Positions 12,001-58,523 of a DNA stretch of 64,000 bases are shown piece after piece. A program made the translations under genes and the position numbers. The stretch comes from Candidatus Omnitrophota bacterium. Its GTDB lineage: Bacteria > Omnitrophota > Gorgyraeia > Gygaellales > Profunditerraquicolaceae. Each line of letters opens with the position of its first letter. Position 1 is the first letter of the stretch. The notes below the pieces were generated by a model that did no database searches, had not been told where the DNA came from, and saw nothing but the letters and a program-made list of their open reading frames with translations. The stretch lies in NCBI GenBank assembly GCA_025453395.1, contig JALOQK010000007.1, positions 6,524-70,523 on the forward strand, given 5' to 3'.

Positions 12001-15000
12001 GCATTGTCTCCCACAGCAGTACGCACGCCAACACCGCGCTGAAGCGTATCGGGCGTGCCCTGATACTGCACAGAAACACTGTATAAATCAATCTTATTCC
12101 CAAAGGCATCGTAGAGATTAGTCACTTGAGCGTTATTATTAAGATTCCCATCGCCCCAAAAAGCATTATTCATATAAGAGCCTAAATACCCTTGTGGATT
12201 TTCTGATTCAACCAACTCCTTTACTTCTTGTTCAGTAAACACCGGCAGGTTAGGATATTTTGCTGCTAAATCTTTAGACATAGCATTAATTTCTTTTGCT
12301 TGCGCATTAAGGGCGCTCTTGTATTTCTGAACTTGCATAGATTGTTTGGCAATCTGGTCGCTTAAGTCCAGAACATTGTCTCTTGCATCCTGGAAGCGCG
12401 CCAATAATTCCCCAGCCTTTTTAATCGTCTCTGTGCGATTCCTAAGATACTCCATTGTTTTATCCATATCTTCGCCCATATCTTTCTTTAATTCTTCTAT
12501 ATAGGCGGTTATCTCCGGCAATGAAGCAATTTCATCTGTCTTATCATTTGAATTCTGGATTTTATTCAGGTATTCTTCAGCCTTCTGAACGTCATTGGCG
12601 GTCTTGGTAACATATTTATTAGCATCAACGATCAATGTGTCCTTTAATTTGTTGTAGCGCGCGGTAGCATCATTCAAACGCACCGACCAATAATCAATGT
12701 TCTTTTGTTTCTCTTCTGCGGGTATCCCAGAAGCGTTATTGGCTGCTGCAAGCTGTTGCTTAAGCCAATTAATGCTCCACTTATCATTTGATCCCAGAAT
12801 TGCAATTTCACTGGACAAAGCTGCCTGGCTTTGCAACGCCTTAGCATATTCCTGTTGGGCATAAGGGACTCCCTGTTTGGCAAGGTTAACTTTTGCCTGA
12901 ACATAACCCAATGACTTCTGAGCGTCATCCCATTGTTCAGTGGCGGCAGCCAACTGCGCATTAGCCCAACGTTCTGCGGAGCCCTGAGGATCTTTATACC
13001 ACTGTGATTCTGTGGGGACAGATCCTCGTCTGTCTTCCCAATTCTTCAAAGCATTAGTAGCATTTACTAAATCCAGAACCTCATCAAGACTTTGATCTTG
13101 ACCCGCTAACCTGCCCTTATATATCTGCGCCTGCGTAAGCTGCTGATTTAAACTATTAATATTAGCCTGTGCCTTGGGAATTAATTCATTGTAGTAAGCC
13201 ACTAACCCGCTATTCCCATTACTGATATATTTCTGGCGCAGGGAGTTTAATTGCGCCAACTCCTGCTGGGCTTGCGCGATTTCACCTGTTAAGGCGGTAA
13301 TACCGGAATCTGCTTTATTTAAAGCTTGATTATAATTTTCTTGGGCCTTTGTTTTATTTTCTTGCGCCGTTTCAATATTCTTATCAATCCACGCGGTTCT
13401 CTCGCCTGCCCACAAACCTGACTGGGTGATAAGATACTGCATGAACATTTTATTCTCTAAATCAATCCTTGTGTTCTCCTGCGCCTGTGGCAGGACACGG
13501 TAAACATTATTCAGCCATTCATACAAAGCTTTCTGATATTGATAAGAATGTACGTTTACGCTTAAGTTGTTTAGTTTAGTGAAATAATTAGATAAATCCT
13601 GATATACCTGCGGAACAGCTTCAGTAGATACTGCGGGAGTTGTCTCTAAGGCAGAAACATTGACTTTTTCTAATTGCTTTTGGATAACAAGCCCTGCCTG
13701 CTCTCTTGAAACACCGAGCTTCGTGCCGTCGGGCTGGGTAATATACGCAAATACATTGTTCTGATCAACCCCTTCTGCATATTTAACGGAATCGGCGTAT
13801 TCAATGACCCCGGGAATAACTGTTTTCTTGCCGTTGGCATCCACGCCTTCAGCTAAATACGGGGCAGCCCAGACTTTATTCACATCTGTTCCTAAAGTTA
13901 CCTTGTCTAAGCCATCACCAAAGTCAACCACGACCTTGTCTTTGGAAATCTTGCCTTGGCTGTGTAAAGCTAAGACATCGGCAACGCTAAGCCTATAAGA
14001 ATAAGGAGCGTGATTCTTGAAAGTATGCACAACCGCGTAAGGAACATCTACGACTACAGGCGTAACAAAAGCAAAATGCTGCTTGCCAAGCTTATACCCT
14101 AAATCTGAAGACCCAAATATATTTACTATTTTCTCATCCTGCTGAGTAACTTGCGTAATAGTATTTGTGTGGATCTTCCCATCTTGCCCGGTAACTTCAT
14201 ATGTATATTTATATTCTGTTCCCTTGGGAAGGATACCTGTCACAAAAGCTTCGTCTTTTTTAATATCAAATCTCACGCCGTCGCGCACAATGTATGCGGT
14301 CTGCACGCCCATTTTACCTTCGCGCATATACATTTTAATAAGCATATTCTCTAAACCGCCGATGGCAAATTGACGATTATAAGGATTTAAAGGCGCTTTA
14401 TCCATAAAGATGTTCTGCGCGTCTTCTCCCACAAAGGCGCCATTCTTAATAAGCGGGGCATCTGCAGATACAGTTACCGGAGAATCTTCAAAGCTTTGCG
14501 CGGGAGTGAAATTACCAGTAGATATATCGCTTAATCCGCCATTCTTAAGCATATTATGGAACATCACGTCTATATTGGCTAAGTCGCGCTGCCCTGTTAT
14601 GCGCATTAAAATATAAGGCTGTTCTTTCTCGGCCTGGTTGGTCAGCCAAGGCCAGAGATTCTGAAAACGCAAGAATTGCTCGGTAGATAAAGATAATTTT
14701 TCTTTGCGGAAGTCTATGGTCAGCTTGTCTTCGTCGCGATAATACATATTTGTCTTAGAAACAATCTCATTGGTATTTTTGGTTATATTCCTGCGATAAA
14801 TAATCTGTTCATGGGTATTTATGTCCGCGGACATCCAATACTGCACTTGATCATCAGTATCCGGCTCTTCCCCTGTTACCGCGCGGTAAGTAACTTCATG
14901 CTGCGCTAAAGACGGGAACACCACAACCGGGAAATTACGATACTGCGGCTGTTTAGTAAATAAAGCGCCGATAAGTTTATTTAAGGCCTCGCCAAAATTT

Positions 15001-18000
15001 TCCATATTGTAATAATCTGTCTTGTCATTGCCGAATTCGGCATTAAACTGATTCACCCCATCCTTGTTGACAATAGTCGGGAAATATAAATAAGCTCCGT
15101 ATTCAGTTTTGATAAGATAAATATTATCGTTCAACAGCGAACCATTCAAAATAATATTGGGAAGAATATTACCGAGGCGATGCTCAAAATCCACTCCTGC
15201 CTCTACGCGGGCAATCCAGGCATTAAGGCCAATCTTGGTCTGCTTGCCAACAGTAACACAACCAACTTTTCCTAAACGCAACCCCAGCAGAGTTCCATCA
15301 TCTTTCCCAAACAACCCTTCCTTGCCCAAGCCAAGGTTTAACCCAAAAACAGTCACCCCAAAACGGTCTACTACATCACCCTCATATTTAAGCGCTAAAC
15401 CGCCTATACCGTGGGCTATTTTGTGATACTTAGGAAGCTGCAGGATAGTAACGATATCATCATATAAAGCAATTGATGCCAAAGCGATATTGGTGCCTCC
15501 GGTGATTTCTTTCTGGCCGAACCCGTAGATAATATTTACTGCGTCTACTAAAGCGGCAACATCCCCGCCTAATTGAAGCCCAAGATAAGTATTCTTGAAT
15601 TTGCCTAAATTGATCATGGTATTGGCAAAATTCTGCTCTACAGCTATATAAAGCGAAACCAGATCATACAAATTCTTATCTTTGCTGGCCTTCAAAACCT
15701 CAAAATACGTCTGGCGAAGCTGTATGAATGCTTCATAGGCGCTTCCTAAGGTAGCCTCAAAATAAGCGACATCCCTGAATGACATATCTTCGGCAGAAAG
15801 CGCCATATTCTTCTTGCTAAGATTATCATCGCTATAATCTTCAAGCAGTGCGATCACTTTTTCGCTATTAACCTTTCCGGCCTGATCCAAAAGATTTTCA
15901 ACTTCTGCTTTAAGCTGGTTAGGTATAGTAATCTTCTGGCTGTTCTTCTTATCAAGCGCGTCTTGAGCAAAAGTTATTTCTTTATTTAATTTTAAGAGCT
16001 CTTCGCGCAATTCATCGCGGTTGCTGGAAATTTGGTCTCTTATTTCTTTTAGCTTTGCAGAATTCGTGGCTAAAATCTTATCCCGCTCTAATTTAATAAG
16101 CTCTATCTTTTCTTCTCTGGAAAGGTCATGCCCAGCCGCAACCGGCACATTAGGATCATTATTTACTTGAACTGGCGCTGTTTTAACATTCTGCCCTAAG
16201 AGGCTATTGCTTATCTCTTGCCCTAACTGCTTGATCTTTGTTTCTCTCTGGGCAATGCGCCCTTTGATTTCATTAATCTTCGCGTCAAGCGCGGCGATCT
16301 TGTCTTTAAGTTCGGTTATCTTAGCGAAATCATCCACCGCTACTTGGCTGGCGTAATTAATATATGTAAGCTTGGGTGAAAATTGATCAACTGGAGTATA
16401 AGCTATTGCCTGTGCTTGAGGGGCAACAACAGAATTCAAAGTTAAGGCGGAACGGAGAATTGTGCTTTGGGCAAAGCGCTTTAATAAACCGGGATGTTTT
16501 GGAGGACCTTTATTACGAGGAGCCTCTAACTGGATTTTATTTGGCAATACAATACTTTGAGGTTTAAGTGTTTCACCTTGGGATTTATCATCCTCAAGCC
16601 ACTTTTGCTGCATCGCGTCATAAACTGGCTTCTTAGAACCATCTGCTCTTAACCAACCCCAATAATCTTCTTTGTGATCCTGCTTATCCTGCTCTCCACC
16701 TTTTCTCTTGTTGTCCTCAAGGCTCATAAAGAAGATGCTTATGCCTTCTTCTTTTGCCTGACGCCAGATCTCTAATGCTGCCTGTTTCTGGAAATCTTCT
16801 CCCTCTTGGCCAGATACGCCAGCCTCAGCAACATATACAGGTTTAGCAATTCCTGCTCGCTTCTTGGCTAATTCATAAACGCTTACAATATCGCCTATAT
16901 TTCTATACCAATTAAGCCCGATCATATCTACATCGGTTTTCATTATTTGGGCAAGATGCGCAACAATATTTTCATCTCCTAATACCACAGAAATCTTTAC
17001 ATTTTCCCCAAGCTTCTTATGAATATCTTTGGCTAAACTATCCACTAATGCGAAATATTCTTCTATCGGCTTTCCGGTCCAGGCAGTATACCTGCCGGAC
17101 ATGTTGTATTCGTTACCCAACTCAAAAACGACTTCCATCTTGCCCTGTGCAAGTTTCAATACTTCCTGCATATAAGAGATTAAATTGCCTGAAGTCATGC
17201 TTATTCTTTCATCCATAGAAGGAACAACTTGGCCCCAGAAATTAGTAAGGTGATTATAGGCATAGCCGTCCAAAGGAATACCGATAGAAAGCACCTTAGT
17301 TTTTCCCTGCTCAATAATCACCTTTAAGATATCTGTACTTAGCGGATAATAGGTGCGTTCTGCGTTACCGATAAGGCGGACGACATCAGACTTATCGAAA
17401 GTCTGGGCATCAATAGTCAAGCCGTAGAACGGCTTGCCGTTCAATAAAGTCTGGGAACCTTCTAACTTTAAATCCGTCTGCTCTATTGCTGCCTCTTTAA
17501 CTTCTGCCATATCCGGCTCAATTGCTGCTAATTGCTCAACCAGCTTTACCTTCTCCTGCTGTAATTGATTTAATAACTGTTTATCATTTTGCAAATCTTT
17601 TTCTTCCTGCTGCAACAGTTCATTAAGGCTCTTTATTTCTGCGGAGACGGAAACATTTGGATCATTAACGCCTAACTGCGCGTTCTTTTTAAGGATGTCT
17701 GATAAATCCGCCAACAGCTTCTGGTTGGCGTTATGATCATACTGTTGATCAAAACCAAACTGCGGCATAAAAGAAGGCGTATGGTTAGGATCATTGTTTG
17801 CGAATGCTAGATTGCTACCGTTATATGAATTAAAATCAACACTTAAACCCGCCCATGCCCCTGCGACCAAAATAGAGAAGAAGCCAAATATTATGACAAG
17901 CCCTGCCCAAGGAGAATTTTTTCTTGTAGATACAGTTGCAGGACAAGCCTCCTGGCCAAAAACAGTGTTCAAGTTGCGCGCGCTTTCTCTTAAGGAAGCT

Positions 18001-21000
18001 ATGCTTTCCTGCAGAGCCTGAACAGCTTCTTTAAGCTTTTTATAAGCTGCCATTCTTAAAGTTCTCTTGGCAAGTTCCTCGCTTCTTAAAGCATCACCCT
18101 GCAATTTCAAAGCTTCAGACTTATTATAACGATAGCTAAAATCACTCTTAAGGCCGTTTATTATTGCCGCGTGTTCTTCTTCTAAAGAGTTTCCCGCCTT
18201 AGATATTGCCAGGGAAACTATATTCTTATAAGCGGCAAGGCTTAATATTGCTTCCGGAATAGCCAGCGCCATTTTTAAGGCTTGCGCATCAAAATTATCG
18301 CCTATTGTATCTATCATTTCCTGCTCAAGATATGCCCAGATAAGCTCTGCCAATTTTCTGCTCATCTTTTTCTGATCAGGTAAAACATTACCAAATTTGG
18401 ATAAATACGACTTAACCCAAGTATGATACTGGCTTAATGCCGCGTAAGTAAGATGTTCGGTGTTTGAAGGCGCCTGCGGCAAGGCTTCAATCTGACTACG
18501 AAGCCTTGCTATGCTGGCTTCGATTTTCTTCTCTTTACGCTGTAATTGCTTTATCTCTTCCAGAGCTTCCGGGTAAGCACCATTTATTTTTACATCTTTT
18601 TGCAGCTTACTTAACTGACTTGCTGCCTTTTCTTTCAACGCTTCTAACTGAAGAATCCTATCCGCAAGAGGGCTTACCTGCTCAGTGTATTTCTGCACTT
18701 TAGCGGAAACATCAGAGAATTTATTTTTTAACCCAGCCAGGAATTTGTAAGATTGGCCATTAAGAAATTCCGGCTTTGCCAGGCTTAATAATTTATTAAT
18801 TAGCAATAATACGCCTGCCGCGCTAAAGGCGATTATTGACACCGCCCAAGAAATCTTAGTAATAGCACCTAATGCCGCAGCGGGAATAAAAATTGCGATA
18901 AGCACGCTTACTGCTATAACTGCCACCGCCACCAGCACCGCGTTTATTCCAAACCCGCCCTCGCGATGGTGGTTTGACTTTTGTATATTTGTTTCCTCCT
19001 GCCGCTCTAATGCATACTGTGTTTCAATAATCTTCGCGTAAGCCATATCTTGTAAATCTTTATCCAAAGTAGAATAAAATGCCGCGTCAAATTCATTCCT
19101 TGCTTCTCTGTATTTGCCTTCTTTGAATAACATTTCTCCTGAATCAAAATGGCTTGCGAAATCATCCGAATTTTGAGCTATTGCCTGTTCCTGCGGCACA
19201 AGAGGAGCATTTACTAAATAATCCGCGCCATTGGCCTTGGCCAGCGCCCTGTCCATAGCCGCCCAATCATCCACCTCCCGGAAATATTGCGCAGATACGG
19301 TAAAAAATTCCTTGCTTGCCGCGATATTAGCGACATCGCCGGAATTAAGCAACGAATGGCCAAAATAGAAAGCAATCTTTGCCAAAGCGTAAAGCGTGTT
19401 ATCCGTAAGTTTCCTGCTTGCGTTGCTTTTTAATATATCTCGGGCGCGGCCCATTATTGTTTTTATATACCCATCTTCACCTGTTAAGTAAAACGCCTCG
19501 GCAAGGCCTGCTAAAGCTGTCAACTCTTTCATGGTGCTTAAGCCGGGAACACGAAGCGCTTTTCCGAAGAATCTAATTGCCTGCGTATAATTTTCCTTGC
19601 CCAAATAAGCCTGCGCCAGAGATATTAGAACCGCGTCTTTTTTTACCTCAAGTAAATGGTCTTTTCCTATGGCAAACAAGGCCCTCGTAAAATAACCAAT
19701 GGCGTTATTAAACTTTCCAAGCTCAAGCAACCTCATCCCTTCCAAATACTCTTGATCTATTAACTCAAGCGCGGCGACGCGGTCATCTTCCGTAGCAGCC
19801 CTGTCCTCTGCGTTAAGAATACCTTCTTCTTTGCGCATTTTACTTAATTCTTCCGAAGCGTATTTCAATAGATCATTGGCTTTCGTATCACCGGTATCAG
19901 CCAGCTTTAAATAGATGACGGCCTTTTCTAATAATACTATTTTCCGTAAGTTATCGCGTTGTGTAGACGCCATAGTAAGATAACATATTGCGATTTCAAA
20001 GCTAAGTCCCATATACGCCTTTTCTCTGCCTTTAATGCCGGCTACCATCCTGCGGGCTTTGTGAAAATGCCTGATGGCAATTATAGGTTTTCCGGCGTAA
20101 GAGAAAATCGAGCCAAAGTCATATTGCATCTTGTAATTATTCCTATAACGCTTTAATTGATGAATAATTTCAGCTGCTTCCACAATCGCTTTTATTTCTT
20201 CTGGCCTGGGGCCGTCTTTACTCTCAATAATCTTTGCAAAATCCTCAATCGCCGCTTCGGCAGGAAAAACAATTTCATTTACAATCGTTTTCTTTAAGTT
20301 AAAGCTGTTAAGCTCTGCCTTAACGCGCCTTGAATACCTTTTCATATCATATCTTCCCCATCTCCAGAAGAATGGCACCCCTGCCATTGCCATGCCTGCG
20401 GCAGCAGAGTGGTTTAACATTATCTGCGCCAAAATAATTAATCCGGCAACAAAAACGGACTTTAACACATTCAGGACAACTGCGCCAAGGGCGTTATCTT
20501 TATTTCTTAACCAATCAAGGGCTGCTTGCTTGGCCGCTAAATTTACTTCTAACTTATTTACCCGGAAGTCATCTTTTTTATTTTCGGCTACCGGTATAGC
20601 TAATTCTATCCTTGCGATCTGGCGTAATAAAATATTCTCCAGAGACTTTTTCTCATTACCGTTTAACCTCTGCCTTCTCCTGCCGTCTTTAAAGGTAACA
20701 TACACTTTTCCGGAAATCACTAACGCGTCAAATACGTCGCTGGAAAATGCGTATGTTACAATCTGTTCGTCGGATAGAGTATCGGCTGATGCGAGAGATT
20801 CTTTCTGCCGCGCAGTTCCACCGAATAACATATCTCTGGTTTTCGGGAAAAGCCAAAGTAACATTGCCAATGATGCTAATAGCCCAAACACGTAACCTAA
20901 TGACCCCACCTCAGTGCTAATATTACAATTTATAGCTTCCTTCGCTCCGGAAACCTGCCCTGCCTGAGCAGTATTAACCAGCAATGAAGCAAATAACATC

Positions 21001-24000
21001 ATTACTGCTACAGCTGCTGTCTTAATTGGCTGATCAGTAAAGAAGACTCCTACGCGCGTTATCAGAAGGGCGGTCTTTTTATATTGAACTGCAGAAGGAT
21101 ATCTATAATAAAGTTGCCCGCCGAAGGTGCCGCAAAATACTAAATTGTCCGGATTTTTATTATCGCCTTTTACCCAGGAAGGCTGGCTGTTCTTGGGAAC
21201 CATGGCCTTGGGGCTGTAATAAAGCACGGCGCCGCTGGTCGGATCGGCAATTTCTCCATCAAAAACGCGCTTTGCAAATATTTTGGCAATAGAAAGGTGC
21301 TTTGGGCTGGCTTTATAATAATTGGAGTTCTTATCCAGCACGCAGGAATAAGCGTATTTACGTAAGAAAACTGATTGTAAGGTTAAGGTGTATTTCTCGC
21401 CATTCTTGATTCCAAATTCTTTGGCCTTGCCTGACTTAACGCGGTTAACCGCATTCCAGACAATTGCAGAGGCCGCTTCTATATCTTCTTTGTCGCCTTT
21501 TTCTAATCCCGGCAGGAATTCCACGCCTTCACCGCAGAGTATTTTTGAAGCTATTTCAAGGTCTTGGTCATTGTAGGCGATAACCGGAGGCCCGGTAGTC
21601 GTAGGTTTAGCATTAAGAGCCACTTTCTTTATTGGCTGTTCATTTTTATTAATCTTAACAATGTTTTGCGATAACGTCTTTGTATTTGCCGCGGTCCTGT
21701 TAACCGCGCCTGCCGCGCCTGACCCCACGCCGCCGAAACCAAAGAGATAGAAAATAACCACCAAGAATTTATTCTTAAGCTTATCTTTAAAGGCAAGCCA
21801 TCCCAAGAATGGCACTGCTAACCAGGCTATGCTCAAGCTCTGGAGTATCGGGCCTAATCCATTAACCCCCATTGCCATTGCCGGCAGGCAAAGCAAAGCA
21901 GAGATTAAAATTGCGGCTATAGCAAATAATCTAAGCCCATTATTGTATTTTAATGCCGTGGGAGTGCGCTTAATAACCTCTTCTCTTTTTACTTGCGCGT
22001 TCTTTCTTTCAAAATAAGTCCTGATTATTTTAACCGCATCAAGAAATAATTTCTTAGTCAATTTAACAAAATCAACAAACATATACCCGATAGAAGTAAT
22101 GTCATAGACTTTTACGGAAGTCTTTGTATTCACCTTCGCGCCTGCCCCGGGCAATTCAGATGATCGTCGAAAGTCAACCGGCGGCACGCCCTTTTTCAAG
22201 ATCGTCGGGTTCTCTAAATTTGATAAAATCTGCGCCATTCTTGCTGCCCATTCAACACCCAAAGCTATCACGGCAAAAATACCAATACCAATGATAATTA
22301 AAGATATTTTATAAAATATCAATGCGGCTATCCCGATAGTCATAGTGATATTGGCAATCATAGCTATCTTATATATCCGTAACGCTATATATTTTTGGTA
22401 ACCATTTAACACCGGCAAGCTGTTATTGGCATATAAAGATAATGAAGATACTCCGGCTAAGAACCCTACAGCAGAAAGCGCCGCAATACTATTGAATATT
22501 TCTTTAACAGCCATTTCCGGGAAGAAAGCTTTTATGCCAAAAGCAATACCAAGGCCCGACGCCACAGTAATCATCGCGGCCTTCCAAACTTTTCGCGGAT
22601 TAATCTCTTGCTTTATTACCGCCATTTTATACATCTTATACAGTTTAAAATACACGCTGGCCGCTAAAGCTATACCTAAGAAAATAACTAAAGCCTTCAG
22701 AAATACAAGGTTGCTTAAGGCCCCCTGAACAACCTGCTCATTAAGCACAGTCTCTTGCCCTGCCTGCGCCTGCTGTGACATCAATAACACTGCCGAACCA
22801 ATCAGGGCCATCAAAATTCCAGACTGATGCGCATTAGAACCGCCCTTATCATTTTCATCTAAAGAAGATTTGGCATTCTTGTGGATCTGTTTCCTTTCAT
22901 GCCAAAAATATAAGTGTGCGCAGGATTGGACAAACGCAACTGCTCCCAATCCATAAATTGCTAAATCCTGTATTTCTGAGCCGTTTAACATCATGCCTGT
23001 CGTAAAAGGAAGCGCGGTTGCCGCCAAAATCATCCCCACCACAGAGCCATAACTTGTCTTAGGCAATTTTCCTGCAGACAACCTATTCATTATGGCGCTA
23101 TTTAATCTATCAGCCAACCCTGGATCTTCCTGAGAAATTCTATCTACAAAAGCATTAATAATATCAAATAAGAACTCTTTGTTTATTTCATTTTTACGGA
23201 TCATTCGCCTCAATGCACTAACCGATACCTTAAACTCAAATGCTATATCAGGAGTCTCTTTAACTGGACAAGCCAAATCACAGATCCTGGCTTTAAATAT
23301 TCCGTTTTCTTCTGTAATAATGATATTCTCTGGATTTGTAACTATATCGGTGGGGAATTGACCCTTAGTAAGAATATAGAACTGCGCGGCCATTATCCCG
23401 GCAGACTGGAAAATTGCGTGCATTTTGATTTTATCATCTTGGCTCATCTTGCCTTGTGTCATGAAAATCTTAATATAGCGCCTCAAATCAAGACCAGGCA
23501 AATACTCTTTAAAAATTACACGCATAGAGTGATTCTTTTTATTATAACTATAGCCATAATCAGCATACCCATATGGCCTCTGCAATATATTTTGTGCCAC
23601 GGCATATAAACGATGCAGATTGTCAAATTCGGCCTTGCTATGCTCTTCTAAATCCTGAATCTTAATACCCCTGAATTCCCTATCAATAGCCAAAGCAAAT
23701 TCTTTGGTCGTGTCATTTGTTTTAATAGTAACTTTATATACAAACCGATGAGCGCCCTCCCCGATTTTCTCTAAAGAAACTCCCCCTAAGACTATGTCCT
23801 TAATATCCTTTATATTCACTCCCAATTTGTGCGCAATATCATAGAGGTACTTGCCATGGAGATGCTCAATACCGTCATTGGCAACCGGCAGGAATAACGC
23901 GGCAACAGCTTTAAAATGAAAGTTATATTTCTTTGCCCGGGCAAAATTGTCACGGAGTTCATCACTAAAACGTATCTTCTGTATAATAGAAATATCTTGT

Positions 24001-27000
24001 TCGTCTAAAGCAACCCCTATAGCTTGCGTGAAATTGATAATTTTCTCTGACTGATTCCTTACGGCTTTATCAAAAATACTCCTGCTAGTGGCTAACAACG
24101 GCACTATTGCCAAAGCCATCCCACTATGCCCAAGATATTGCGCGGCATAATAAAATAAGCCAATAGTAAAAACAGCTAATATTGTGTTCACCACTGCGCC
24201 GGGCTTGGATGAATTAGAACCGTCCCCATTTTTCTTATCGAACTTAATACCTAAAGCTAATTCTAATTCCCGGATAAGTTTCTTTGATATCTTGATAAAA
24301 GTATTTGTATTTATAGCAGACAAGTAGAAATCTCCGTATTCTCTTACCATTTCAGCCCTAAGCACAAAATACTTCAGATCATCTGAACTCTTAACCCCCT
24401 TAACTTCTACTATCCGGCCTTCTTTCATCTTTACTAAATTCATGCCCGCTGCTGTAGATAATAAGGAATTTACAGTGTTGAAATAATAAATGGCCCTGAA
24501 TAAATTTATAGTAAAATACAGTGCTGCCAGGGTCATAAGCCCGCCAATGCCTAATATAATCGCCAAGCCGTGTTCTCCCACAAAGGCCATGGCGCGCTCT
24601 AATAAAGTAGCATGCACCTGCGGATCCATCTTAATTCCGGCGAAGGCATGGGAAGAAAGGAACAGCACTATACCGATCATGCCCACGATAGCGCCATAAC
24701 CTCTTACTACCTTACCGCCGTTTCTGCCCTGTCCGCCGTTACGCGCAAATGCGCATACATCAATATTGCCTCCTACGCCTTCGGGATTAGCCGGCTTCTT
24801 TTCTTCCTTAACAGGCTTTTTCTTAGACTGTTTTTCATTTTTGCATTTTTGGGGCAATCCAGAAGGAATTCCTTCTACAGGAGGAACTGGGCGCACACCA
24901 TTATCAGCAATAACTGGTTTAAGCGGCGACCAGCTGTTCCCGATCACAGCTATCATTAAGGTGGAAAACAGGAATATTGGGACGGGACTCTTTAATGCGC
25001 TTAAGCACAATTGCGGATTCATCTTCGGTAAGGAATTCCCAGCTGTCAATGCGGCCATTGCGGCTATAGACGTTACCAGTATTTTCATATACAAGGAATA
25101 TCCTGACGTGTTCGTGGTAGCGCGCCACAGCGAAGATAGTGTGGTCTTTTTCGAATATGACGAGATGGTCGAAACGGAGTTCTGGATCGGTGTAATTGAT
25201 CTTAACCATTGTACACCTCCTTGTTTAGAAGAAACAACACCCGCGCAATTCCAATTAGCGCGGGGTGTCTTGAGTTGTTTCAGGAGCTCCACAGCGCGGG
25301 TCAGTGTCCTGGAGGTCAGGAACGCTGCAGAGCTCCCAAAAACAACAATGCCGTTACTAATATTCCTGCCACGGAAGATATAGTTAACGGCTTGCCCTGA
25401 GTAAAATCGAAGGGCTTTGGTTAATAATTTAATTGATTGTGTGATTGTGGTAACAAATGCGCCTAATTTGGAAGATTTTTTGCTGATAGCTGACAAAGGC
25501 GGACTGCGGGCACTACGGTTTTCGCTGGGATTTGAATGGAATAAACCGGCTATAAACGACCAGATCCGCCTAAAAATAGGCGGTTTAATTACTTTTATTT
25601 GGGCTATCTGAACAGCACTTCCCGAACCACCGTTTCCAGAGCTGTTTGCACTATTGCCGGCTCCAGAACCTGCGCTGTTCTGATCTTTACTGTTTGCACC
25701 TGTAGAACTCCCCTCAGCCTGCGCCGAAACTTTTCCAGGCAAACTGCGGGCACCAACTATACTTATTACTAATGCTGCTGTTGCAAGTAATACACCTATT
25801 ACTACAAACCAATTTGTTTGCGCGAGTATTTGTTCAACGACTGCCTGTGCTTGCGCCAGCACAGCAGCCATATTAATACCGCCTGGCCCGCTTACGGCAG
25901 GGCCTCCGGTCTGTGTCCAATGAAGATGACTAATCGTGACTGGCAGGGTTACGCCTTGCGCGGCATTAACTAAACCTAAAATACCCAAAGCTGGGACAAA
26001 AGTCCTTGTGCCTAAACCTCCTACCACACTGCCAAAAGTATTTGGCGGCGTAGCCCTTGCCGGCGCCTGCGCAGGCAAAGCCTGATTCTGCCCCTTGGAG
26101 ACAGGTTTTTCTCCTGGCGCGGGACTACTCTGAGCGCCAATAGGCATTGCTGTAAACCCTGCAGCATGATCAAGATTAAGCGCTAAAAGTATTGCTTGGT
26201 CCGCAAGCGGCAAAGAGGCGATATTGGCTAATACTATTTCTTTTCCGCTCTCCATGCGCGCACTGCGCAGCCAATCCACAAGATTTGAAATATACACTGT
26301 ACTAACTTTAAGCTGGTTAGCCAAAAGCCAGTCTCTTACCTTAATAATATCCTGTTTGCTGGACCAATCCGCAGTAACGCCAATAATCCTGCCCTCTTTG
26401 GCCATTACCCTAATATTTCTGTAATTGGCTTCGTTGGAAAGCCAGGTTTCGTTACCGATTTTATCCAACCCGGACATTTTCTCCAACATGTTCAGGACAA
26501 GATAAAATTCTCCTTTTTTCATGAAATACTTAGCCCAGAACTTTTTAAGCGGCTCTTGCAGCTGCGCAGGGAACATAAGTGAGACTATGTTCCAAGCCTG
26601 TTTTCTTGCCGCGATAAAGTCTTTTTCGCTGGTATTGTCCAGCTTCCGGCTTATCGCGTCTTTAAGCTGGGATAAACTGGCATTTTCTAATTTCTGTAAT
26701 TCTCTTTCACTAAATTCCACTCCCGCAAGTAGTGCCAAATACTGCGCGCGGCTGCCTGACAGAGAAATTAACAAATTCCTAACCGGGATAAATATTTCCG
26801 CGCCAAAAGGATTGATATCCGCAATCACCAAGTAATCAAACCCACCTCTGGAAACCAAGGAAAGGTTTTGGCCGCCAAATCCAACACCCAGATAAACACC
26901 GCCTTTTACGCCCTGTAGTGCTTCATATCCGGCAGAAACGGTCTTGGTTTCGTTTGTCGCAAACCAATATCCGATATCATTAAGGTGCTGCTCTGTAAAC

Positions 27001-30000
27001 GCGCTTTCCGCAGCCGCTTCAGGATGATGTATCGGTAAGGCTTCTCCCTCTGTTGCCATATTATGAATAAGATTTGCTCGGCTTTGCGCTCTATCATAAG
27101 AAACTCCGCCTGAACGGGACAAAGATTCAATCAAACCATGCTCTAAGTCTTCTAAGGTCGCGGTTTGCGCAAGATAAATCGTGTTCGGATCCTCATCAAA
27201 AACAAATTCCCGGTCATGGTTTGAATTAAGCTCATAAAGGTTAGACATCAAAACACGCACTCCGGGGAACTGGCTGGCGCGTTCACCAATTTTTCCGCCT
27301 AGCGTAATCAATGAAGAATTATTAATGTTGCGGCTGGTTTCTCTGGCTAAACCTTCTTCTGCCACGCCGTGCCTTCCGGAGCCGGAAACCTGCTGATTTG
27401 ACGCGGGTTCTACAGCCGTGCCTTGTTCAAATAGCGATTCGCTGACCTCTGAACCGGGATGGACAACATCAATGGTTGTGCCGTCCTTAGAATTCCATTC
27501 CAGCAATAACGCTTCGGGAACAGGCGCATTAGAATAAGACGCTGCGATTTCACCGTCTTTGCCTATGCCAGTTTCTGCGGCGTAGCGATACGCGTCGGAC
27601 CACTGGGCAACACGCCATTCTTTGGATGCCTGATCAAACAAATACACCCGCGCTATGCCATTTTCAAAACCAAGAAGCACCTTAACGCCTCTATACGCCA
27701 AAAGATTAAGCGCGTTATTAAAGTTTGCGGCATTCTCACCACTTGTAAAGATGGCATGCTGATGCCAATCATGAAGCCCTGCATCTTCACCGCCTGTATT
27801 GCCGTGGAATGATTTTACCCTGCGTATTTGACCGTCAGCAGTCTGCATATAAACAGATCCCTGCTCTGTGGTAAATACGCGCACTACCGGTGAGCCGTTT
27901 GGCGCGGCTAATTTACCTTGCTTGGCCAAGTCCACAATAACCTGTCTTATCCTTTGCATAAGCTGTCCTACAACATCGGCTCCGGCGTTATTCGCGGCAA
28001 GCTGTTTCAATTCATCAGAAAGCTTATCAATCTGCTGCCATGCTTCGCCTGCCTCTGCCGATGCATCAACCTTATATTTCTGCGGGTCGCCCTTCTTTTG
28101 CTCAAACTTCACATCTTTAAGCTTTATCTTCTGGCCGTTGATCTCTATCTCCGGGTCCTCTCCGATACAAACTTTGATCTTGGCGTTATTAAGGTCGGTT
28201 TCCTTGAGTTTGTTTATAACTGTTGTTTTCTCGCTGATATTTATATCTAACTCGGCTGTGCCGATGACCTCGCCCTCATTGATGATTTCAACTTTGGTAT
28301 CATGGATGCGCACGCGGCCGGTCAACTCTGCCGGGGCCCCTCCTTTAACCACCACTTCGGCGTTCTGGACATCGATTTCCAGCTGTTGCTGGGCAGCATA
28401 TTTTGTCTTCACCAATTCTTGGGCAAGTTCTGCGGCGGCTTTGTCTTCAGAATTAACTTGAGCTGGAGATTCTTGGGCTGGCTGGGTTTCTTGGATAGGC
28501 GTTGCTGCTAAATAACCTTGTGCTCTCCTAGTCATCTGAGCGATAAAAGAATCCCCTATCCTAAGTGCTGTTTTATCACCAAGAATGACTTCTCTTCTAT
28601 GGTCTAACTCTAAAATACCTCCTGACATGCGGCCATTGATTTCAATAACATACAGCTTTCCTGTTTTATCGGCCATAAGGTCTATACTGGCATAATCCTG
28701 TTGGAGATTCCCTTTCTCTCCCTTACTTAACATATCAGCTTCCGCCTTATTCTGCATAGCCTCAAAGGCGGCGATAGAAACTTCTTCAATTCTCTTCATC
28801 TCTTCATCCGAACTAATACCTCTTGCCTTTAAGGCTTCTTCAAAAGTAAGAATTCCTCCGCCTTGAGAGATATTTACAACTCCACCTACCCGGCCGGTTC
28901 TTACAGAAATTGCCATTACCCTTGGTTTATTATCTGCTCCACGGGTGATAAAAATACGGTAATTCCAATCATACTGATTATCGCCAATCTTAATAACTGG
29001 CGGAATAATCCTACTCTGAAGCATAACGCCTGCCTTATACTCTCTATCCTTACGAGCAAGCAGTATTTGATCTACAACTTCATCAACCGTAAGCCCTTCT
29101 TTAAGTACGCGAACACCATAACCGCCATACCAATCCAAAGGCTTAATAACCACCCCACCGGGTAAATTTATTTCGCCCTGGCTAAGGCCATATAACTTCC
29201 TTACTGCAGCGGCCACTTCTTCTCTATCAGCATTTCTTGAGAATGTAACTGTACCGGGAATGCTTACGCCGGCGGGTTGGAGAATTTCCATGGTAGTTTT
29301 CTTGCTATCTTCATACTCTTCAAAAAGCTTATTACTGGAAACTGGCACTCCCATATTTTCAATCTCCAAGAAACGCTCGTTGCTAATAGGCCGGAAACTA
29401 TGTACATACCCCACGCGCACAGGTACAGAATAGCGAACAATTTCGTATTTACCTTCGCGGAATCTTATGCCCTTATTAACATACACACTGTTACCCTTGA
29501 TGATCAAATCTTCTGCCCTATCAACCCAAACTACTTCTACGGGGTGGCCAGATGCCGTGGCTCTTAAAAGAGCAAAATTAGCAAGATTGCCATCGTTATA
29601 CGCATACCTACCTATCATAACAACTGCACCCGAATGAACCGCGGCGTCTTCAACGACCCCCGGGACTAAATCGAAATCTGAACCAGCTAAATATCTAGGT
29701 AATTGCTGACGGAAATTATCTAATTGTGCCCTGAATCTCAACAAATCAGAATCCTCAAGAAGTCTCTGCTTATATTCAATGGCACGTCTATACGCCAGCT
29801 CTATATAATGATTGAGTAATTCATTGGCTTCTTGCGTCTGGCCAGAAGCTATCATTACTTGTTCTGCATGCCAAATGCCACCTGATGGATTACCGTTAAC
29901 CTCTATAACAACTGGCTCAAGCGAACCATCTGCACTCTTACGAACCATTACATCAATACCAGAAAAATCATGCTGATTACCGATAAACTCAACTGTATCA

Positions 30001-33000
30001 TTGCGCCTATATGCATCAACAATAGAAAATGCGGCTACGGCTTTAACTTTTATCTTTTCTATAAGCTGCTTTGTCTCTTCTTGGCTTAAGCCTAATTTCT
30101 GACAAACCTGCTCTATGGTCATAGCGTGGGCAGTCAAACTAATATTAACGACTTTACCTTCACTATCAACGCGTACGCCCATGCCGGTATAAACCGGATT
30201 ATTATTAGCATCACGAGATACAAATACTCTCAAATTCCAATCTTGAGGAATCCCGTTTTCTTCAAAGAGAGGTGGTACTATTCTCTCCTGCATAATAACG
30301 CTATGATCTCTTTTTAATAAATCTACTATGGCTTTTGCTATCTCTTCATCAGATGCGTTTGACTTAAATACCTTAACTCCAAATCCCGCCCACCCGTCAG
30401 ATGGCTTAACTACGACTTCTTGCCCATGCGCTAACCTGAATTTACGGACTAAACTAATAACATCTTGAACATTACCTTCCCCTCTTATTACTGATGGTGC
30501 TAACTTTATGTTTCCTTCATTGTCAATATCAACAAAAAGTAATTCGTCGCTGTGTGATTTATTTACTGCCTCCGATAAACCCACCCTATCTCTCTCGGGG
30601 GCGTTTGACAGCACAAACGACATAGACGACGGAGCAGCTACGCCGTTCTCTTCCAATAAAGCATTAACCAAGGGCTTATTCCCAGCAGTATACTCAAAAC
30701 TATGCGATTCAGAAGTAGGAACCAGCAAAGGCTCTTCTGTATTGTTCTGCGCACTATTATTAGAAGTATGTGGATACTGCGCCCAAACATCGCCGTTTCT
30801 GTATAATAAGTAATGCGCCTCAACCGGCCTTGCGGAATCGGAGAAGTTCGCGAGAACAAATCTATACTGATGCCCTTTAGTTTTAATTAAAATTAATGCT
30901 CTCTTAATAAATACCCTTCCGTCCTTGAAAATTACCCATGAAGGATCCAAAACAAACAAAGCATTTGAATCTGGCTGAACTACCATATTACGAGCAAGCA
31001 CAGTAACTTCGTTATGCCCAATAATATTTACGCCTTTAGACGAACGGCCTTCCAAATGTATGATGTTGGGGGCGTTTTCCTTAATAAATTTATAGCCGTC
31101 ATCAGTTACTTCAATATCTAACACAACCCCGCCCTCTTTGATCTTACTGCCGACTCTTAATAACTCCAGAGCCCTTAAAGCTTCTTCTTTGTTTGGTGTA
31201 ACGATAGCATTAGATGACGATGCATTAGTTACGGGCTCGTCAGAAGTACGGATTAAATTTTCCGCGGCATCTACATTAGTAAATGTGGTTTCTTGATTAA
31301 CACTAACTGACTTAGATTCTTTTGTTTCATGATCTAGTTGATAAGCATAGTAATCATTTCTACCTACTGGCTTGATAATCACATGGCCCTGTTTATCCAT
31401 AGAAACATCAAAATCACCCAATTTTGTATAAATACGCCTGGGAGCTAATAAAGCGTCTAATTCAAATTCAACAGAAATAAATTCTTGGGGATTGGTTTTG
31501 CTACGGATATCAATCTTGACAATCGCGGGCTCTTCTGCTTTATTAGAAGATACTTTCTGTACAATAATATTTACTTCTTGTGCTAGTTCATAGGCGGGGG
31601 CTTCCCTAGAAGCTGAAGGAGTAGAAACTCCTTCGGAATTAAACTTAACTTCCGATTCTTCTTGTTTAACCTCGGCGGCATCCGGCGGGGCGTTTTCCTG
31701 CTTGGGGTCTGATTTCTTGCCCTTATAATCATACGCAGTAATGCTAATCTGGAATTTCTTGCTGAACAAACCCTTACCTTTAATATCAATATCATAGCCG
31801 CGGCCAATACCTGTTGCTTTATCAAAATTAAGCTGGTCAATAAACTGGCCGTTTTGAAGTTTATCTTTGGAAATTACCACTTCTTCATTTTTATCTCCCA
31901 CCTTAACATCAAAGACTAACACATTGAAGTTTCCTTTAGTTAAACGGAACTTGCTTACTGCGGTTTTTAATATCTTATCTATAAATCTTCTTGCCGGAGC
32001 CTGCACATCCGCGTAAAAATCAAATTTATTCGCTGGTACTAACTGGCCGTTGCGGTCAACCCGCAAAACATTCTCTTGGTTTGCCTTTTTGTCTTGGTAT
32101 TGCCCTTTGACTGCCCCAAAGAAACCTTTGGATAATGTAATAGTCCCGGTGCCGATATCTACTGTAGAGCTTGCGTTCAAATCCACAATTTGGGTTTTCT
32201 TTACCCGAGGCGCATTTGCATCCGCTCCCGGAACATACCATTCCAAAAGCAAAGTTCCATCTGCCTGCTGGGTAATGGTAATTCCTCCAAGAACCCAGCG
32301 CCTTCTGCCATCTTTACTATTAACTTCTGTCTTATCATAAGCCTTAGTAACATCAATTTTGGCATTCTCGCGGGCAACAGGAGAATTATCCTGCGGCACG
32401 CCCCACCTTTGCGTTAAGAACATTGGAATACCATAATCATCGGCGTTAGTCAGTTCTACTCCTGCCTTCATCGCAGATAAATACGCCTTAATGTAATTTT
32501 CCCGGTCAAAGCCCTCATAATAATTCCAATCTGTGCGCCATCCCAGATTAGATGCCCTTAATAATGGATTCATGAATTGCGCCAAACCAAGCAACATCCT
32601 AGTTGTAAAATATGTCCCTCTTTTAGTATCATATTTCAGGATAAAATCCTGCGAGCCCGGACGGAATTCTACCCATTTATTCGCGCTTAAAACCTGATAA
32701 GGAGTAAAACTATACGGTGTTCTTAAACCGGGGTCTACCGGTGATATTTTTATCTTGCCATCGGCATCAAAATCTGCCACAAACCCGTCTTGATAATAAG
32801 GCGCTAATTTTTTAATGTCTTTCTTCTTTAAGTTTCTGCCATTTGAGGCATCCTTCTGGGCCCAGAAAGCGTATTTAAGGCTCTTATTGATCAGGCTCTT
32901 TTGGGCATCTACTATATTTCTTAAATTTAACCCTCCCAAATCGCCAAGAATATTGTATGAAATAATATTCCTAAATATATTAAGCCTAGCCGCATCTCTT

Positions 33001-49452: not shown

Positions 49453-49599
49453 TTTTGAGTTTTTAAGCTCTTTGTGAAACTATTTGTTATCAACTTAAAA
49501 AGAAAACCGGACTGTCAAATACCTGATTTCTCGTCGGTATCGGCAGCCCGGCTATCTTAAGCTTTTACTTTTTCGCTTTACTTTTTTCGCTTTTAAGAT

Positions 49600-49620
49600 C
49601 CGTGGCTTTGCGCCCTCCGA
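49600..49620 (-). promoter_or_regulatory. Conserved leader motif CCGTGGCTTTGCG-N-CCTCCGA (+ strand), copy A. A partial second copy CCGTGGCTTTC lies at 49645-49655.
   Basis: The same 13-mer plus CCTCCGA recurs at 58524-58553, at the same relative position (about +20 to +60) downstream of a second TTGACA/TATAGT promoter. Confidence 0.5.
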
Positions 49621-49669
49621 TTTCTCGGAGTTTGCCTGTTCGTTCCGTGGCTTTCTTAACGACACTTGA

Positions 49670-58342: not shown

Positions 58343-58480
58343 ATCCCGACGTTACGCTTCGCGTAAGTCGGGATTATTTCGGCCAAACGATTTACGTTCA
58401 CTTCGTTCCGTAAATCGTGGCCTCAATAAAAAAGCCGAGTTACCAATATAAACCTTTTTTAGGCTTTCGGTAACCCGGCT
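58343..58480 (-). promoter_or_regulatory. Structured 5' leader: three consecutive stem-loops between the promoter and the first flp gene
   Basis: H1 (58343-58374) pairs atcccgacgttacgc with gcgtaagtcgggat. H2 (58381-58422) pairs a perfect 10-bp acgatttacg with cgtaaatcgt and has GGCC clamps. H3 (58433-58480) pairs agccgagttacc with ggtaacccggct. None is followed by a U-tract on the coding strand. Confidence 0.5.
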
Positions 58481-58523
58481 AACGTTGTCGCTTTTGACCC
58501 TCCAGAAATTGCGAGCAATCGTC

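Follow-up and report, generated by a model that had tools for sequence, protein, structure and literature searches.

The window analysed here, a 64,000-nucleotide stretch of a Candidatus Omnitrophota contig, contains a stop-free frame on the minus strand that spans positions 3 to 46301 (~46 kb) and corresponds to one gene (Table 1). The region 21800-24700, for which the preliminary description proposed internal clusters of membrane helices, lies inside this giant ORF and in the same frame. A Tad/T2SS-type gene set (secretin, ATPase and T2SSF) is located directly upstream of the ORF, and the T2SSE neighbour shows 74-75% identity with Omnitrophota MAGs. The N-terminus of the encoded protein shares 34-63% identity with C39 proteins of Omnitrophota. 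It contains a hydrophobic segment (VVAFLVAVVFL, aa 32-42, window positions 46167-46199) within a signal motif that is nearly invariant across 12 Omnitrophota homologues, followed by a Peptidase_C39 domain for which 57 homologues were found; those with a named source are almost all from Omnitrophota/Omnitrophica. The hydrophobic segment had been described as a signal-anchor. The segment itself is present, but the anchor part of that claim is not supported, as an 11-residue core is followed by PEQVAQA; judged by its sequence, the segment resembles a cleavable signal peptide no less than an anchor. The Tad/T2SS neighbours and the conserved signal-plus-C39 N-terminus together indicate that the giant protein is of the Omnitrophota type.

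Omnitrophota giants of >10,000 aa with numerous transmembrane helices, a C39 domain near the signal peptide and adjacent T2SS/pilus genes have been reported (West-Roberts et al. 2023, bioRxiv 10.1101/2023.11.21.568195), and a "Peptidase C39" architecture cluster of giant proteins has also been described (bioRxiv 10.64898/2026.06.07.730766). That giant Omnitrophota proteins contain numerous transmembrane helices is therefore already published for the class. The protein studied here resembles them in being encoded by a single ORF of >15,000 codons directly downstream of Tad/T2SS-type secretin-ATPase-T2SSF genes, in having a C39 peptidase after an N-terminal signal segment, in its long N-terminal stretches lacking recognisable domains, in its numerous internal transmembrane helices and in its divergent enzyme modules (ATP-grasp, TPR and cell-wall hydrolase). 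Most published giants carry a SecA_DEAD-like domain; none was detected among the 15,430 residues visible here, the C-terminus being located beyond the window. A further difference from the published giants is that the databases searched contain no detectable relatives for the greater part of the sequence or for any of the helix clusters tested.

Table 1. Features of the giant ORF (window positions; aa, residues of the encoded protein; dG in kcal/mol; w, weak helix).
Feature	Residues (aa)	Window position	Strand	Details
Giant ORF		3..46292	minus	ATG at 46292; at least 15,430 codons; C-terminus beyond window edge
N-terminal signal peptide or anchor	24-50	46143..46223	minus	SSFKAWIRVVAFLVAVVFLPEQVAQAV; KD 1.9-2.0
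Peptidase_C39 domain	180-258	45519..45755	minus	Pfam PF03412, E = 1.2e-8, 35.3 bits vs cut-off 22
Two ATP-grasp domains	5278-5471 + 5662-5897	28602..30461	minus	Pfam ATPgrasp_YheCD, E = 2.8e-8 and 3.7e-9
First strong helix	6828-6846	25755..25811	minus	dG -2.6, KD 2.7; predicted outside to inside
Helix pair	7202-7220 + 7244-7262	24507..24689	minus	dG 1.3 and -0.75
Uncharged helical hairpin (40 residues)	7366-7403	24084..24197	minus	K+R 3 before, 4 after
Protein-kinase-like (Bud32/RIO-type) domain	7409-7740	23073..24068	minus	Profile, AlphaFold2 and Foldseek; predicted cytoplasmic
Eight candidate helices	7751-8009	22266..23042	minus	Starts 7751, 7777w, 7821w, 7862, 7906, 7936, 7968w, 7991
Basic loop (112 residues)	8010-8121	21930..22265	minus	21 K+R, 10 D+E; predicted cytoplasmic
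Three-helix cluster	8122-8194	21711..21929	minus	dG -1.4, 3.4, 1.5
Hydrolase_2 (SleB/CwlJ-type cell-wall hydrolase)	8270-8376	21165..21485	minus	Pfam PF07486, E = 1.7e-6; predicted periplasmic
Signal-peptide-like segment + two helices	8426-8444 + 8464-8482, 8604-8622	20427..21017	minus	
Helix pair + helix	9118-9165 + 9465-9483	17844..18941	minus	dG -4.3, -1.0, -1.3
Single helix + four-helix cluster	13094-13112 + 13397-13510	5763..7013	minus	
GT2-like segment	13975-14099	3996..4370	minus	Pfam Glyco_trans_2_3, 22.5 bits, below cut-off 27; predicted cytoplasmic
Helix clusters (2,900-4,100 group of the preliminary description)	14084-14234 + 14307-14438	2979..4043	minus	
Duplicated helix-coding segment		2985..3230 (2985-3077 + 3138-3230)	minus	93 nt, 87% identity
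Four-helix cluster	14770-14917	1542..1985	minus	

The protein was screened for strong hydrophobic segments, defined as non-overlapping 19-residue windows with a summed Hessa dG <= 3 kcal/mol. In total, 32 strong windows were detected, compared with 6.1 +/- 2.5 (maximum 11) in 50 composition-preserving shuffles. They are confined to aa 6,828-9,483 and 13,094-14,917: 15 fall in aa 6801-9500 and 17 in aa 13081-15430, and none in aa 1-6800 or 9501-13080, so that no strong segment occurs in the ~10,400 residues that are evidently soluble. The uncharged hydrophobic runs are 19-54 residues long. When applied to other proteins encoded in the window, the same dG rule detected three helices per protein for the two T2SSF proteins; the T2SSE ATPase, the secretin fragment and a 591-aa protein gave none. 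This excess and clustering, together with the alternation of loop charges described below, agree with the earlier proposal that the chain crosses the membrane many times, and the visible part very probably has about 40-45 membrane helices. Several of the clusters were absent from the preliminary description (aa 6828, 8464-8622, 9118-9165, 9465, 13094, 13397-13510 and 14770-14917).

Within the region 21800-24700, the helix pairs previously placed near 24,200-24,700 were found as the pair at aa 7202-7262 and the hairpin at aa 7366-7403. Where 8-10 helices had been proposed around 21,800-22,900, there are 11 candidates at aa 7751-8194 (21711-23042), eight of them within that range, arranged as a group of eight and a group of three. 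Four of the 11 exceed the 3 kcal/mol limit (dG 3.4-5.7). The K+R counts of the flanks and loops of the eight-helix cluster are, in order, 3/15, 0/7, 5/25, 0/22, 7/25, 1/11, 1/13, 0/4 and 1/15, and those of the three-helix cluster 4/15, 0/8, 4/8 and 2/15. For aa 7740-8230, a single-sequence AlphaFold2 model of low confidence consists of helices throughout and lacks strands.

Topology was predicted from a simple hydrophobicity scale and the positive-inside rule, by a TopPred-style enumeration over all subsets of weak helices that used only the K+R content of loops and flanks and no domain information; three of the four helices above the limit were optional in it. All ten best topologies place the kinase-like domain inside and Hydrolase_2 outside. 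For aa 7751-8194, the short loops contain 25/116 K+R inside versus 3/67 outside (Fisher p = 0.002), and 36/176 versus 5/90 when aa 7202-7403 are added (p = 0.001). Lys and Arg thus alternate as the rule predicts, and the proposals that the modules alternate sides and that the kinase faces the cytoplasm are supported for this region. Two separate enumerations, one of the upstream and one of the C-terminal clusters, both put aa 9484-13093 outside, and the latter places the GT2-like segment inside. The number of spans between kinase and hydrolase is odd only if aa 7968-7986 form a span of their own; in the low-confidence AlphaFold2 model, aa 7964-8026 are one long helix. The best model also leaves the textbook signal-like segment at aa 8426-8444 uninserted. 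No homologues of the helix clusters were found in the databases and contig scans searched.

The two ATP-grasp domains, an internal duplication with 34% identity, had been proposed to lie inside as well, which the present analysis does not support. No convincing helix separates them from the N-terminal signal segment: the 6,780 residues between that segment and the helix at aa 6828 contain no segment with dG <= 3. The 52 residues preceding this helix contain no K+R, whereas the 220 following it contain 27 K+R versus 4 D+E. These charges suggest that the N-terminal side of the helix is outside; the simplest predicted topology therefore has the ATP-grasp domains outside, on the side of C39. An inside location could be rescued only by the weak segments at aa 3173, 3340, 3413 and 6757. 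Two ATP-grasp domains outside the cell are biochemically awkward.

The kinase assignment made earlier for this protein is confirmed at the level of the fold. The profile of aa 7409-7740 matches Bud32-type kinases in the PDB (9x4g_B, E = 4.6e-5), the AlphaFold2 model has a pLDDT of 86, and Foldseek retrieved Bud32 (4ww9_A, E = 1.3e-6) among 418 matches at E <= 0.001, the best 50 of which are all protein kinases. The domain has the bilobal protein-kinase fold of Bud32/PRPK and RIO kinases (PDB 4ww9, 9x4g and 1zp9) and retains the Gly-rich loop (GEGAHRFVYKV), the hinge (KEYLPG), the catalytic-loop Asp...Asn and the Asp at the DFG position (ICDLA). Identity with the matched Bud32 chains is only 11-13%, and no Pfam kinase model reached threshold. 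Unlike Bud32/RIO, it contains an extra N-terminal helical part of ~100 residues, its strand-3 Lys is not evident, it sits between the membrane helices of a giant protein, and its family is tiny: 16 homologues were found in 1.84e9 representative proteins, all matching this part only. No strong hydrophobic segment is present in 13 of the 15 other proteins with the domain, and most of the six relatives read by eye start without a signal-like N-terminus (P0002 has one). The scarcity of hydrophobic segments in these relatives fits a cytoplasmic enzyme. The Hydrolase_2 match is borderline, scoring 29.0 bits in a 400-aa piece and 26.8 bits in a 1000-aa piece against a cut-off of 27. PknB-type Ser/Thr kinases have a cytoplasmic kinase fold, one helix and extracellular PASTA sensor repeats, and likewise join a cytoplasmic kinase-fold domain across the membrane to a peptidoglycan-related module. 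The present protein differs from them in having 9-11 helices and a lytic Hydrolase_2 domain; only the shared kinase fold is shown, with 1mru_A among the Foldseek matches.

Towards the C-terminus, the 2,900-4,100 group contains about 9-11 helices (aa 14084-14438). The duplicated transmembrane segment reported there is real at the DNA level; the copies are 153 nt (51 codons) apart, in frame, and encode the peptides LKTLxLLTIxxAIPLGIALGGISAAIAVAVG. As in processive GT2 synthases (cellulose, chitin and PNAG type), a predicted cytoplasmic GT2-like segment with an "ED" motif (IIEDTITSY) directly precedes a block of membrane helices. Unlike in these enzymes, the Pfam score is below the cut-off and the QxxRW motif is degenerate (QRFAG). 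No relatives were found in the PDB or the databases searched.

We consider it probable that the protein is a giant, inner-membrane, multi-domain protein of the Candidatus Omnitrophota type whose N-terminus carries a signal segment and C39 peptidase, and that its hydrophobic segments are genuine alpha-helical spans. An unlikely alternative, which partly overlaps with this explanation, is that the ORF arose from fused genes for secreted and membrane proteins and that some internal segments are working signal peptides, in which case the membrane-inserted chain would be cleaved into several products by signal peptidase I, perhaps aided by the C39 peptidase at the N-terminus. The n-region, h-region and A-x-A layout of signal peptides is seen in five internal segments: aa 7198-7218 (..SSHAFA/G), 7824-7844 (..QQAQA/G), 8122-8140 (..LPAMA/M), 8425-8444 (..NTAQA/G) and 9462-9481 (..AGAWA/G). 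In the best topology, four of them are oriented inside to outside, the geometry required by signal peptidase I, but the segment at aa 8426-8444 is wrongly oriented, and since A-x-A is common in Ala/Gly-rich helices, the motif count has little statistical weight. The only large relative found (P0001, 4,834 aa) contains SSPI ten times (0.09 expected); six of its 14 listed SSP[I/V/A] sites directly precede a basic n-region and hydrophobic core, and in three of these cases there is a lipobox-like Cys. West-Roberts et al. (2023) also raise the possibility that giant proteins are cleaved by C39 or S8 domains. However, the protein in the window has no recurrent junction motif, and most of the 8+3 helices, with 4-25 residues in the loops between them, cannot be signal peptides. 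Such closely spaced helices resemble the layout of polytopic transporters, and the 11 helices, placed between two enzymatic modules and containing charged residues (K7866, R7972, K7975 and K7995), could form a transporter, channel, flippase or membrane-embedded enzyme coupling the kinase-like domain to the hydrolase. This is quite unlikely, because a conserved core normally leaves detectable relatives, and none were found in 5.8e9 clustered proteins, 1.84e9 representatives or scans of GTDB and JGI contigs. Moreover, the helix clusters match no protein family (for the 8+3 cluster, no Pfam match at E <= 5 and a best NCBIfam E = 0.047, far below family cut-offs), the 8+3 cluster has no PDB sequence match, its low-confidence model has no significant fold match, and no internal duplication of the transporter type was detected at E <= 1e-4.

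It is very improbable that the segments are packed in the interior of soluble helical domains and do not span the membrane, even though several show no more than moderate hydrophobicity (dG of 3-6 kcal/mol by the simple scale), the AlphaFold2 model is of low confidence, and TMHMM and DeepTMHMM disagree on such proteins (West-Roberts et al. 2023). The 32 segments match the hydrophobicity of the real T2SSF helices in the window, their uncharged runs and loop charges fit membrane helices obeying the positive-inside rule, and the long soluble part of the same protein has no such segments. Omnitrophota have been described as predatory or epibiotic, the giant genes adjoin secretion and pilus genes, and very long stretches are outside the cell in the best topology, all of which would suit helices that serve as a pore-forming or translocation module, inserting into a prey or host membrane once secreted. 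We give this hardly any credence: the positive-inside pattern is expected for co-translational insertion into the producer's own membrane, the modules dependent on ATP or nucleotide sugars (kinase-like and GT2-like) are on the K/R-rich side, and no similarity to toxin translocation domains was found.

The preferred explanation is thus a protein whose hydrophobic segments very probably do span the membrane as helices, with the kinase-like module inside the cell and the cell-wall hydrolase outside; both the insertion and the side of each module are what we infer from hydrophobicity and charge. The segments would hold the polypeptide at the cytoplasmic membrane. Around the region 21800-24700, a cytoplasmic stretch of basic, low-complexity sequence would be followed along the chain by two helical hairpins, the cytoplasmic Bud32/RIO-like kinase-fold domain, eight helices, the basic cytoplasmic loop, three helices (an odd total) and the periplasmic SleB-type hydrolase. 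Further downstream, the positive-inside rule would assign aa 9484-13093 to the outside and would return the chain to the inside for the GT2-like segment and the C-terminus as far as it is visible. The side of each soluble module may thereby be set by the parity of the preceding cluster, and the clusters would serve mainly to anchor the chain and switch its side, not to work as a transporter or enzyme. For published giants, the topology has been reported as ambiguous; in the protein described here, the loop-charge pattern is predicted to resolve it for the kinase/hydrolase pair.

The minus-strand frame of the giant ORF runs without a stop codon from window position 46301 to position 3 (15,433 codons), which exceeds the 10,000-codon size of the giant class. 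Its first ATG is located at 46292 and the N-terminus reads MDKNIQPKTGEE...; the C-terminus is missing because the frame passes the left window edge. Residues (aa) were counted from this ATG and converted according to window = 46292 - 3(aa - 1), which places the stretch 21,800-24,700 at about aa 7198-8165. An assembly artefact or non-coding sequence was rejected in view of this stop-free length and the conserved N-terminus. The plus-strand ORFs in the 21.5-25 kb region are short (83-205 aa) and contained within the giant frame, and were therefore treated as spurious.

Searches with the first 700 aa of the giant protein resulted in 57 protein matches with 34-63% identity, and the named ones are almost all Omnitrophota/Omnitrophica proteins annotated as "C39 domain-containing, partial". 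A hydrophobic segment (aa 32-42) is followed by PEQVAQA and, downstream, by the C39 peptidase domain, as in the C39 architecture cluster named in a 2026 preprint (bioRxiv 10.64898/2026.06.07.730766). The motif FKSSFKAWIRVVAFIVVAVFLPEQVAQAVEYDWRVLW, which includes this segment, is almost invariant in 12 Omnitrophota homologues whose overall identity is only 34-63%. Ordinary signal peptides are far less conserved than this. A dedicated role of the N-terminal segment in recognition or sorting is suggested.

The genes upstream of the giant gene on the same strand (50-64 kb) form a Tad/T2SS set: secretin, T2SSE, two T2SSF and TadE/G-like genes. The T2SSE ATPase shares 61-75% identity with 80 loci, whose titles nearly all name Candidatus Omnitrophota/Omnitrophica, and its best matches (74-75%) are in Omnitrophota MAGs. 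Directly before the giant gene lies an ORF of 1052 aa that carries a hydrophobic segment at its N-terminus and matches no Pfam family; its stop is located 1 nt before the giant ATG, and the two are probably translationally coupled. The 1052-aa ORF is preceded, at a distance of 86 nt, by a Rfam match to the c-di-GMP-I-GGC riboswitch variant. Because this riboswitch precedes an ORF that all but abuts the giant ATG, the giant gene is probably part of an operon under riboswitch control. A second Rfam match, also to a riboswitch of the c-di-GMP-I class, lies upstream of the T2SSF/Tad genes. Neither of the two giant-gene papers, West-Roberts et al. (bioRxiv 10.1101/2023.11.21.568195) and the 2026 preprint, mentions riboswitches.

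Judged by its sequence features, the giant protein matches the published class of Omnitrophota giant membrane-threaded proteins (West-Roberts et al.; 2026 preprint), with which it shares ORF size, host phylum, many helices, a signal segment plus C39 domain, and T2SS/Tad genes nearby. In the 2026 preprint, 94% of 916 long Omnitrophota proteins contain helices or signal peptides. Most published Omnitrophota giants also contain a SecA_DEAD-like domain, which is therefore not strictly defining. Unlike these, the giant protein of the window gave no Pfam match to this domain (PF07517) in any piece of its visible 15,430 aa, the C-terminal part being missing. The features of the giant protein and its upstream region are collected in the table.

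Features of the giant protein and of the region upstream of its gene; all window positions are on the minus strand
Feature	Residues (aa)	Window	Remarks
N-terminal motif	24-50	46143-46223	almost invariant in homologues
Peptidase_C39	180-258		PF03412, 35.3 bits vs cut-off 22
Gly/Ala-rich, weakly hydrophobic stretch	3173-3427	36012-36776	three marginal segments: aa 3173-3191 (dG 4.6), aa 3340-3358 (dG 3.8), shorter run aa 3413-3427
ATP-grasp, two copies	5278-5471, 5662-5897		Pfam
DUF7790	6444-6703		Pfam
Basic region	6847-7066	25095-25754	after first strong helix
Signal-like segment	7198-7218	about 24639-24701	..SSHAFA|G
Kinase-like domain	7409-7740	23073-24068	putative activity
Candidate helices (11)	7751-8194	21711-23042	8 at aa 7751-8009, 3 at aa 8122-8194
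Signal-like segment	7824-7844	about 22761-22823	..QQAQA|G
Signal-like segment	8122-8140	about 21873-21929	..LPAMA|M
Hydrolase_2 (SleB/CwlJ cell-wall hydrolase)	8270-8376		PF07486, 29.0 bits vs 27 (400-aa piece); 26.8 (1000-aa piece)
Signal-like segment	8425-8444	about 20961-21020	..NTAQA|G
TPR	about 8856-9071		Pfam
Signal-like segment	9462-9481	about 17850-17909	..AGAWA|G
Glyco_trans_2_3 (GT2-like)	13975-14099	3996-4370	sub-threshold, 22.5 bits vs 27; precedes helix block
Tandem repeats	14956-15189	726-1427	about 100 residues each
1052-aa ORF		46294-49452	upstream of giant gene
c-di-GMP-I-GGC riboswitch variant		49538-49645	RF03167, 60.5 bits vs gathering 59, E = 8e-12
c-di-GMP-I-class riboswitch		58466-58573	RF01051, 37.8 bits vs 35

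We screened the visible part of the giant protein for candidate helices using two hydrophobicity scales, Kyte-Doolittle (19 residues, threshold 1.6) and the Hessa biological scale, summed as dG. Both scans detected hydrophobic segments where the preliminary description had placed them, and far beyond chance: 32 non-overlapping segments have a dG <= 3 kcal/mol (strong segments), vs 6.1 +/- 2.5 (maximum 11) in 50 shuffles. For calibration, the neighbouring genes gave three helices for each of two T2SSF proteins, and none for the T2SSE ATPase, a secretin fragment and a 591-aa protein. The strong segments are confined to two zones, aa 6801-9500 (15) and aa 13081-15430 (17), with none in aa 1-6800 or aa 9501-13080; strong and weak candidates together amount to about 45. 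The 8-10 consecutive helices proposed around 21,800-22,900 correspond to the cluster of 11 (table), of which eight are inside that range and four of the 11 are weak (dG 3.4-5.7). The proposed pairs near 24,200-24,700 were recovered as the pair aa 7202/7244 and a hairpin at aa 7366-7403, and the group at 2,900-4,100 as aa 14084-14438, where the duplication proved to be a direct repeat of 93 nt whose two copies are 87% identical and set 51 codons apart. Hydrophobic runs without charged residues are up to 40-54 residues long, sufficient for helical hairpins.

To assign sides we applied the positive-inside rule, counting K+R in loops and flanks only, without domain knowledge in the scoring. Within aa 7751-8194 the loops on one side contain 5/25, 7/25, 1/13 and 4/8 K+R per length, and those on the opposite side 0/7, 0/22, 1/11, 0/4 and 0/8; with the flanks included, this becomes 25/116 vs 3/67 (p = 0.002). 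Topologies of aa 6828-9483 were then enumerated for 25 helices, eight of them weak candidates that were included in every possible combination. In each of the ten best models the kinase-like domain is inside and the putative hydrolase is outside; the top model has 24 helices. This enumeration puts aa 9484-13093 outside, as does the separate one for the C-terminal clusters, which also assigns the GT2-like segment, like the visible C-terminus, to the inside. The predicted sides would be appropriate for a kinase that uses ATP, a hydrolase acting on peptidoglycan and an enzyme of nucleotide sugars. The odd parity between kinase and hydrolase needs aa 7968-7986 and aa 7991-8009 as separate spans. 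An AlphaFold2 model of aa 7740-8230 built without an alignment (pLDDT 46.7) is all helix, with no strands, and joins these two segments as one long helix, but its confidence is too low for it to serve as a fold. The topology of aa 8426-8777 is ambiguous.

In broad terms, and specifically for the kinase/hydrolase pair, the idea that enzymatic modules alternate sides is supported; for the ATP-grasp domains, which had been expected inside, it is unsupported. The 6,780-residue region holding both of them lacks any segment at dG <= 3, and the first strong helix (aa 6828) has 0 K+R in the preceding 52 residues, followed by 27 K+R vs 4 D+E in the next 220. These flank charges, together with the lack of a strong segment, indicate that the region before this helix, including both ATP-grasp domains, may be on the outer side. 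The basic 220 residues are Ser/Gly/Asn-rich by eye. ATP-grasp domains outside the cell appear as a paradox left by this topology; placing them inside would require spans formed by the weak segments aa 3173, 3340, 3413 and 6757. With an odd number of membrane spans among the segments of aa 3173-3427, both ATP-grasp domains would come to lie in the cytoplasm. Similarly implausible localisations, with disagreement between TMHMM and DeepTMHMM, were reported for giant Omnitrophota proteins by West-Roberts et al.

The kinase-like domain has no Pfam match. An exhaustive phmmer search with aa 7190-8230 against 1.84e9 representatives gave 16 matches, all confined to the kinase-like part. In a 13-sequence alignment the Gly-loop, hinge, Asp...Asn and Asp positions are invariant or nearly so; D7649, N7656 and D7672, each either invariant or conserved to at least 90%, correspond to the HGDLTTSN motif of 9x4g_B. 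The alignment profile matched Bud32-type kinases in the PDB (E = 4.6e-5), and an AlphaFold2 model based on it reached pLDDT 86 and pTM 0.86. Foldseek searches of the PDB with this model resulted in 418 matches at E <= 0.001; all 50 of the matches listed are protein kinases, and the matches include Bud32 (4ww9_A, E = 1.3e-6), Rio1 and YopO. Because of the conserved motifs, the profile match, the model and the Foldseek matches, we assign to this domain a bilobal kinase fold and place it in a small, hitherto undescribed family whose nearest structural counterparts are Bud32/RIO. The kinase named in the preliminary description is thus real as a fold, while phosphotransfer is only putative.

The domain also has an extra conserved N-terminal helical part with the motif ALFxPVxxDGxxH..KYIYDI. 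Most of its relatives are stand-alone proteins of 340-500 aa. A strong hydrophobic segment is absent in 13 of the 15 other carriers, and one has a signal-like start by eye. The only large relative, P0001 (L081 2299-16803, 4,834 aa, on an ENA metagenome contig), shares the kinase-like domain alone. It contains the motif SSPI 10 times vs 0.09 expected, and directly after 6 of the 14 SSP[I/V/A] sites listed there is a basic n-region with a hydrophobic core, accompanied at three of these sites by a lipobox-like Cys; by sequence, P0001 has the appearance of several pre-(lipo)protein modules in series. The genes next to it code for PGM_PMM, HATPase_c and transketolase domains.

Could the 11 helices following the kinase-like domain form a conserved transporter or enzyme core? 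Pfam gave nothing for aa 7751-8194 at E <= 5, and NCBIfam, run on six helix-rich pieces, only chance-level matches (best E = 0.047). The cluster has no phmmer match in the PDB, no homologue in a word-indexed search of 5.8e9 clusters and no relative in the exhaustive search of representatives; aa 7190-8420 had no relatives among GTDB genomes and JGI metagenome contigs. Foldseek with the low-confidence model of aa 7740-8230 was not significant (best E = 0.33). Nor are the helix clusters copies of one another in a self-BLAST of the giant protein (E <= 1e-4), where the internal repeats are the ATP-grasp duplication and a C-terminal repeat only. A conserved core is disfavoured by these results, and because the evidence goes against it, we favour the view that the helix clusters act as anchors and side-switching elements.

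The five signal-like segments each combine a basic n-region, a hydrophobic core and A-x-A, resembling cleavable signal peptides, and four of them are oriented inside-to-outside in the best topology. A more far-reaching alternative to anchoring and side-switching, which we regard as improbable, is that the giant ORF encodes a membrane-inserted polyprotein cut at A-x-A by signal peptidase I, possibly with C39. A single transcript controlled by the c-di-GMP riboswitch would then give rise to a fixed set of products at the cytoplasmic face, in the membrane and in the periplasm, among them a Bud32-like kinase and a cell-wall hydrolase first joined via the 11 helices.

For the Pfam scans the giant protein was divided into 1000-residue pieces, which proved more sensitive than 4900-residue pieces. 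PDB sequence searches with three 4,900-aa chunks and with the 1,730-aa region around the flagged stretch gave no matches, nor did the Hydrolase_2 piece alone. The GT2-like segment directly before a helix block has the layout of processive membrane glycosyltransferases, at a sub-threshold Pfam score; by eye, ED is present and QxxRW is degenerate (QRFAG). Together with its helices (aa 13800-14480) it has no homologue in the word-indexed search and only a chance match in the PDB (E = 1.8). The tandem repeats near the visible C-terminus are 33% identical and carry the motif ..SDxKDLINxxL...

The membrane threading of giant Omnitrophota proteins is already known, and this example leaves the published general picture unchanged. 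New are a giant sequence largely without relatives, the charge-based topology of one stretch and a small undescribed kinase-like family; the internal signal-peptide-like segments and the upstream c-di-GMP-class riboswitches are new leads. Giant Omnitrophota proteins are among the largest predicted in any organism, and where they reside in the cell is acknowledged to be an open point, since published predictions by TMHMM and DeepTMHMM conflict and some localisations are implausible. Here, loop charge alone leads to a self-consistent topology of one stretch, with the kinase fold inside, the putative cell-wall hydrolase outside and the GT2-like segment inside. It narrows the ATP-grasp paradox to a small number of segments of weak hydrophobicity, around aa 3173-3427 and 6757, and supplies concrete junctions that are testable by reporter fusion.
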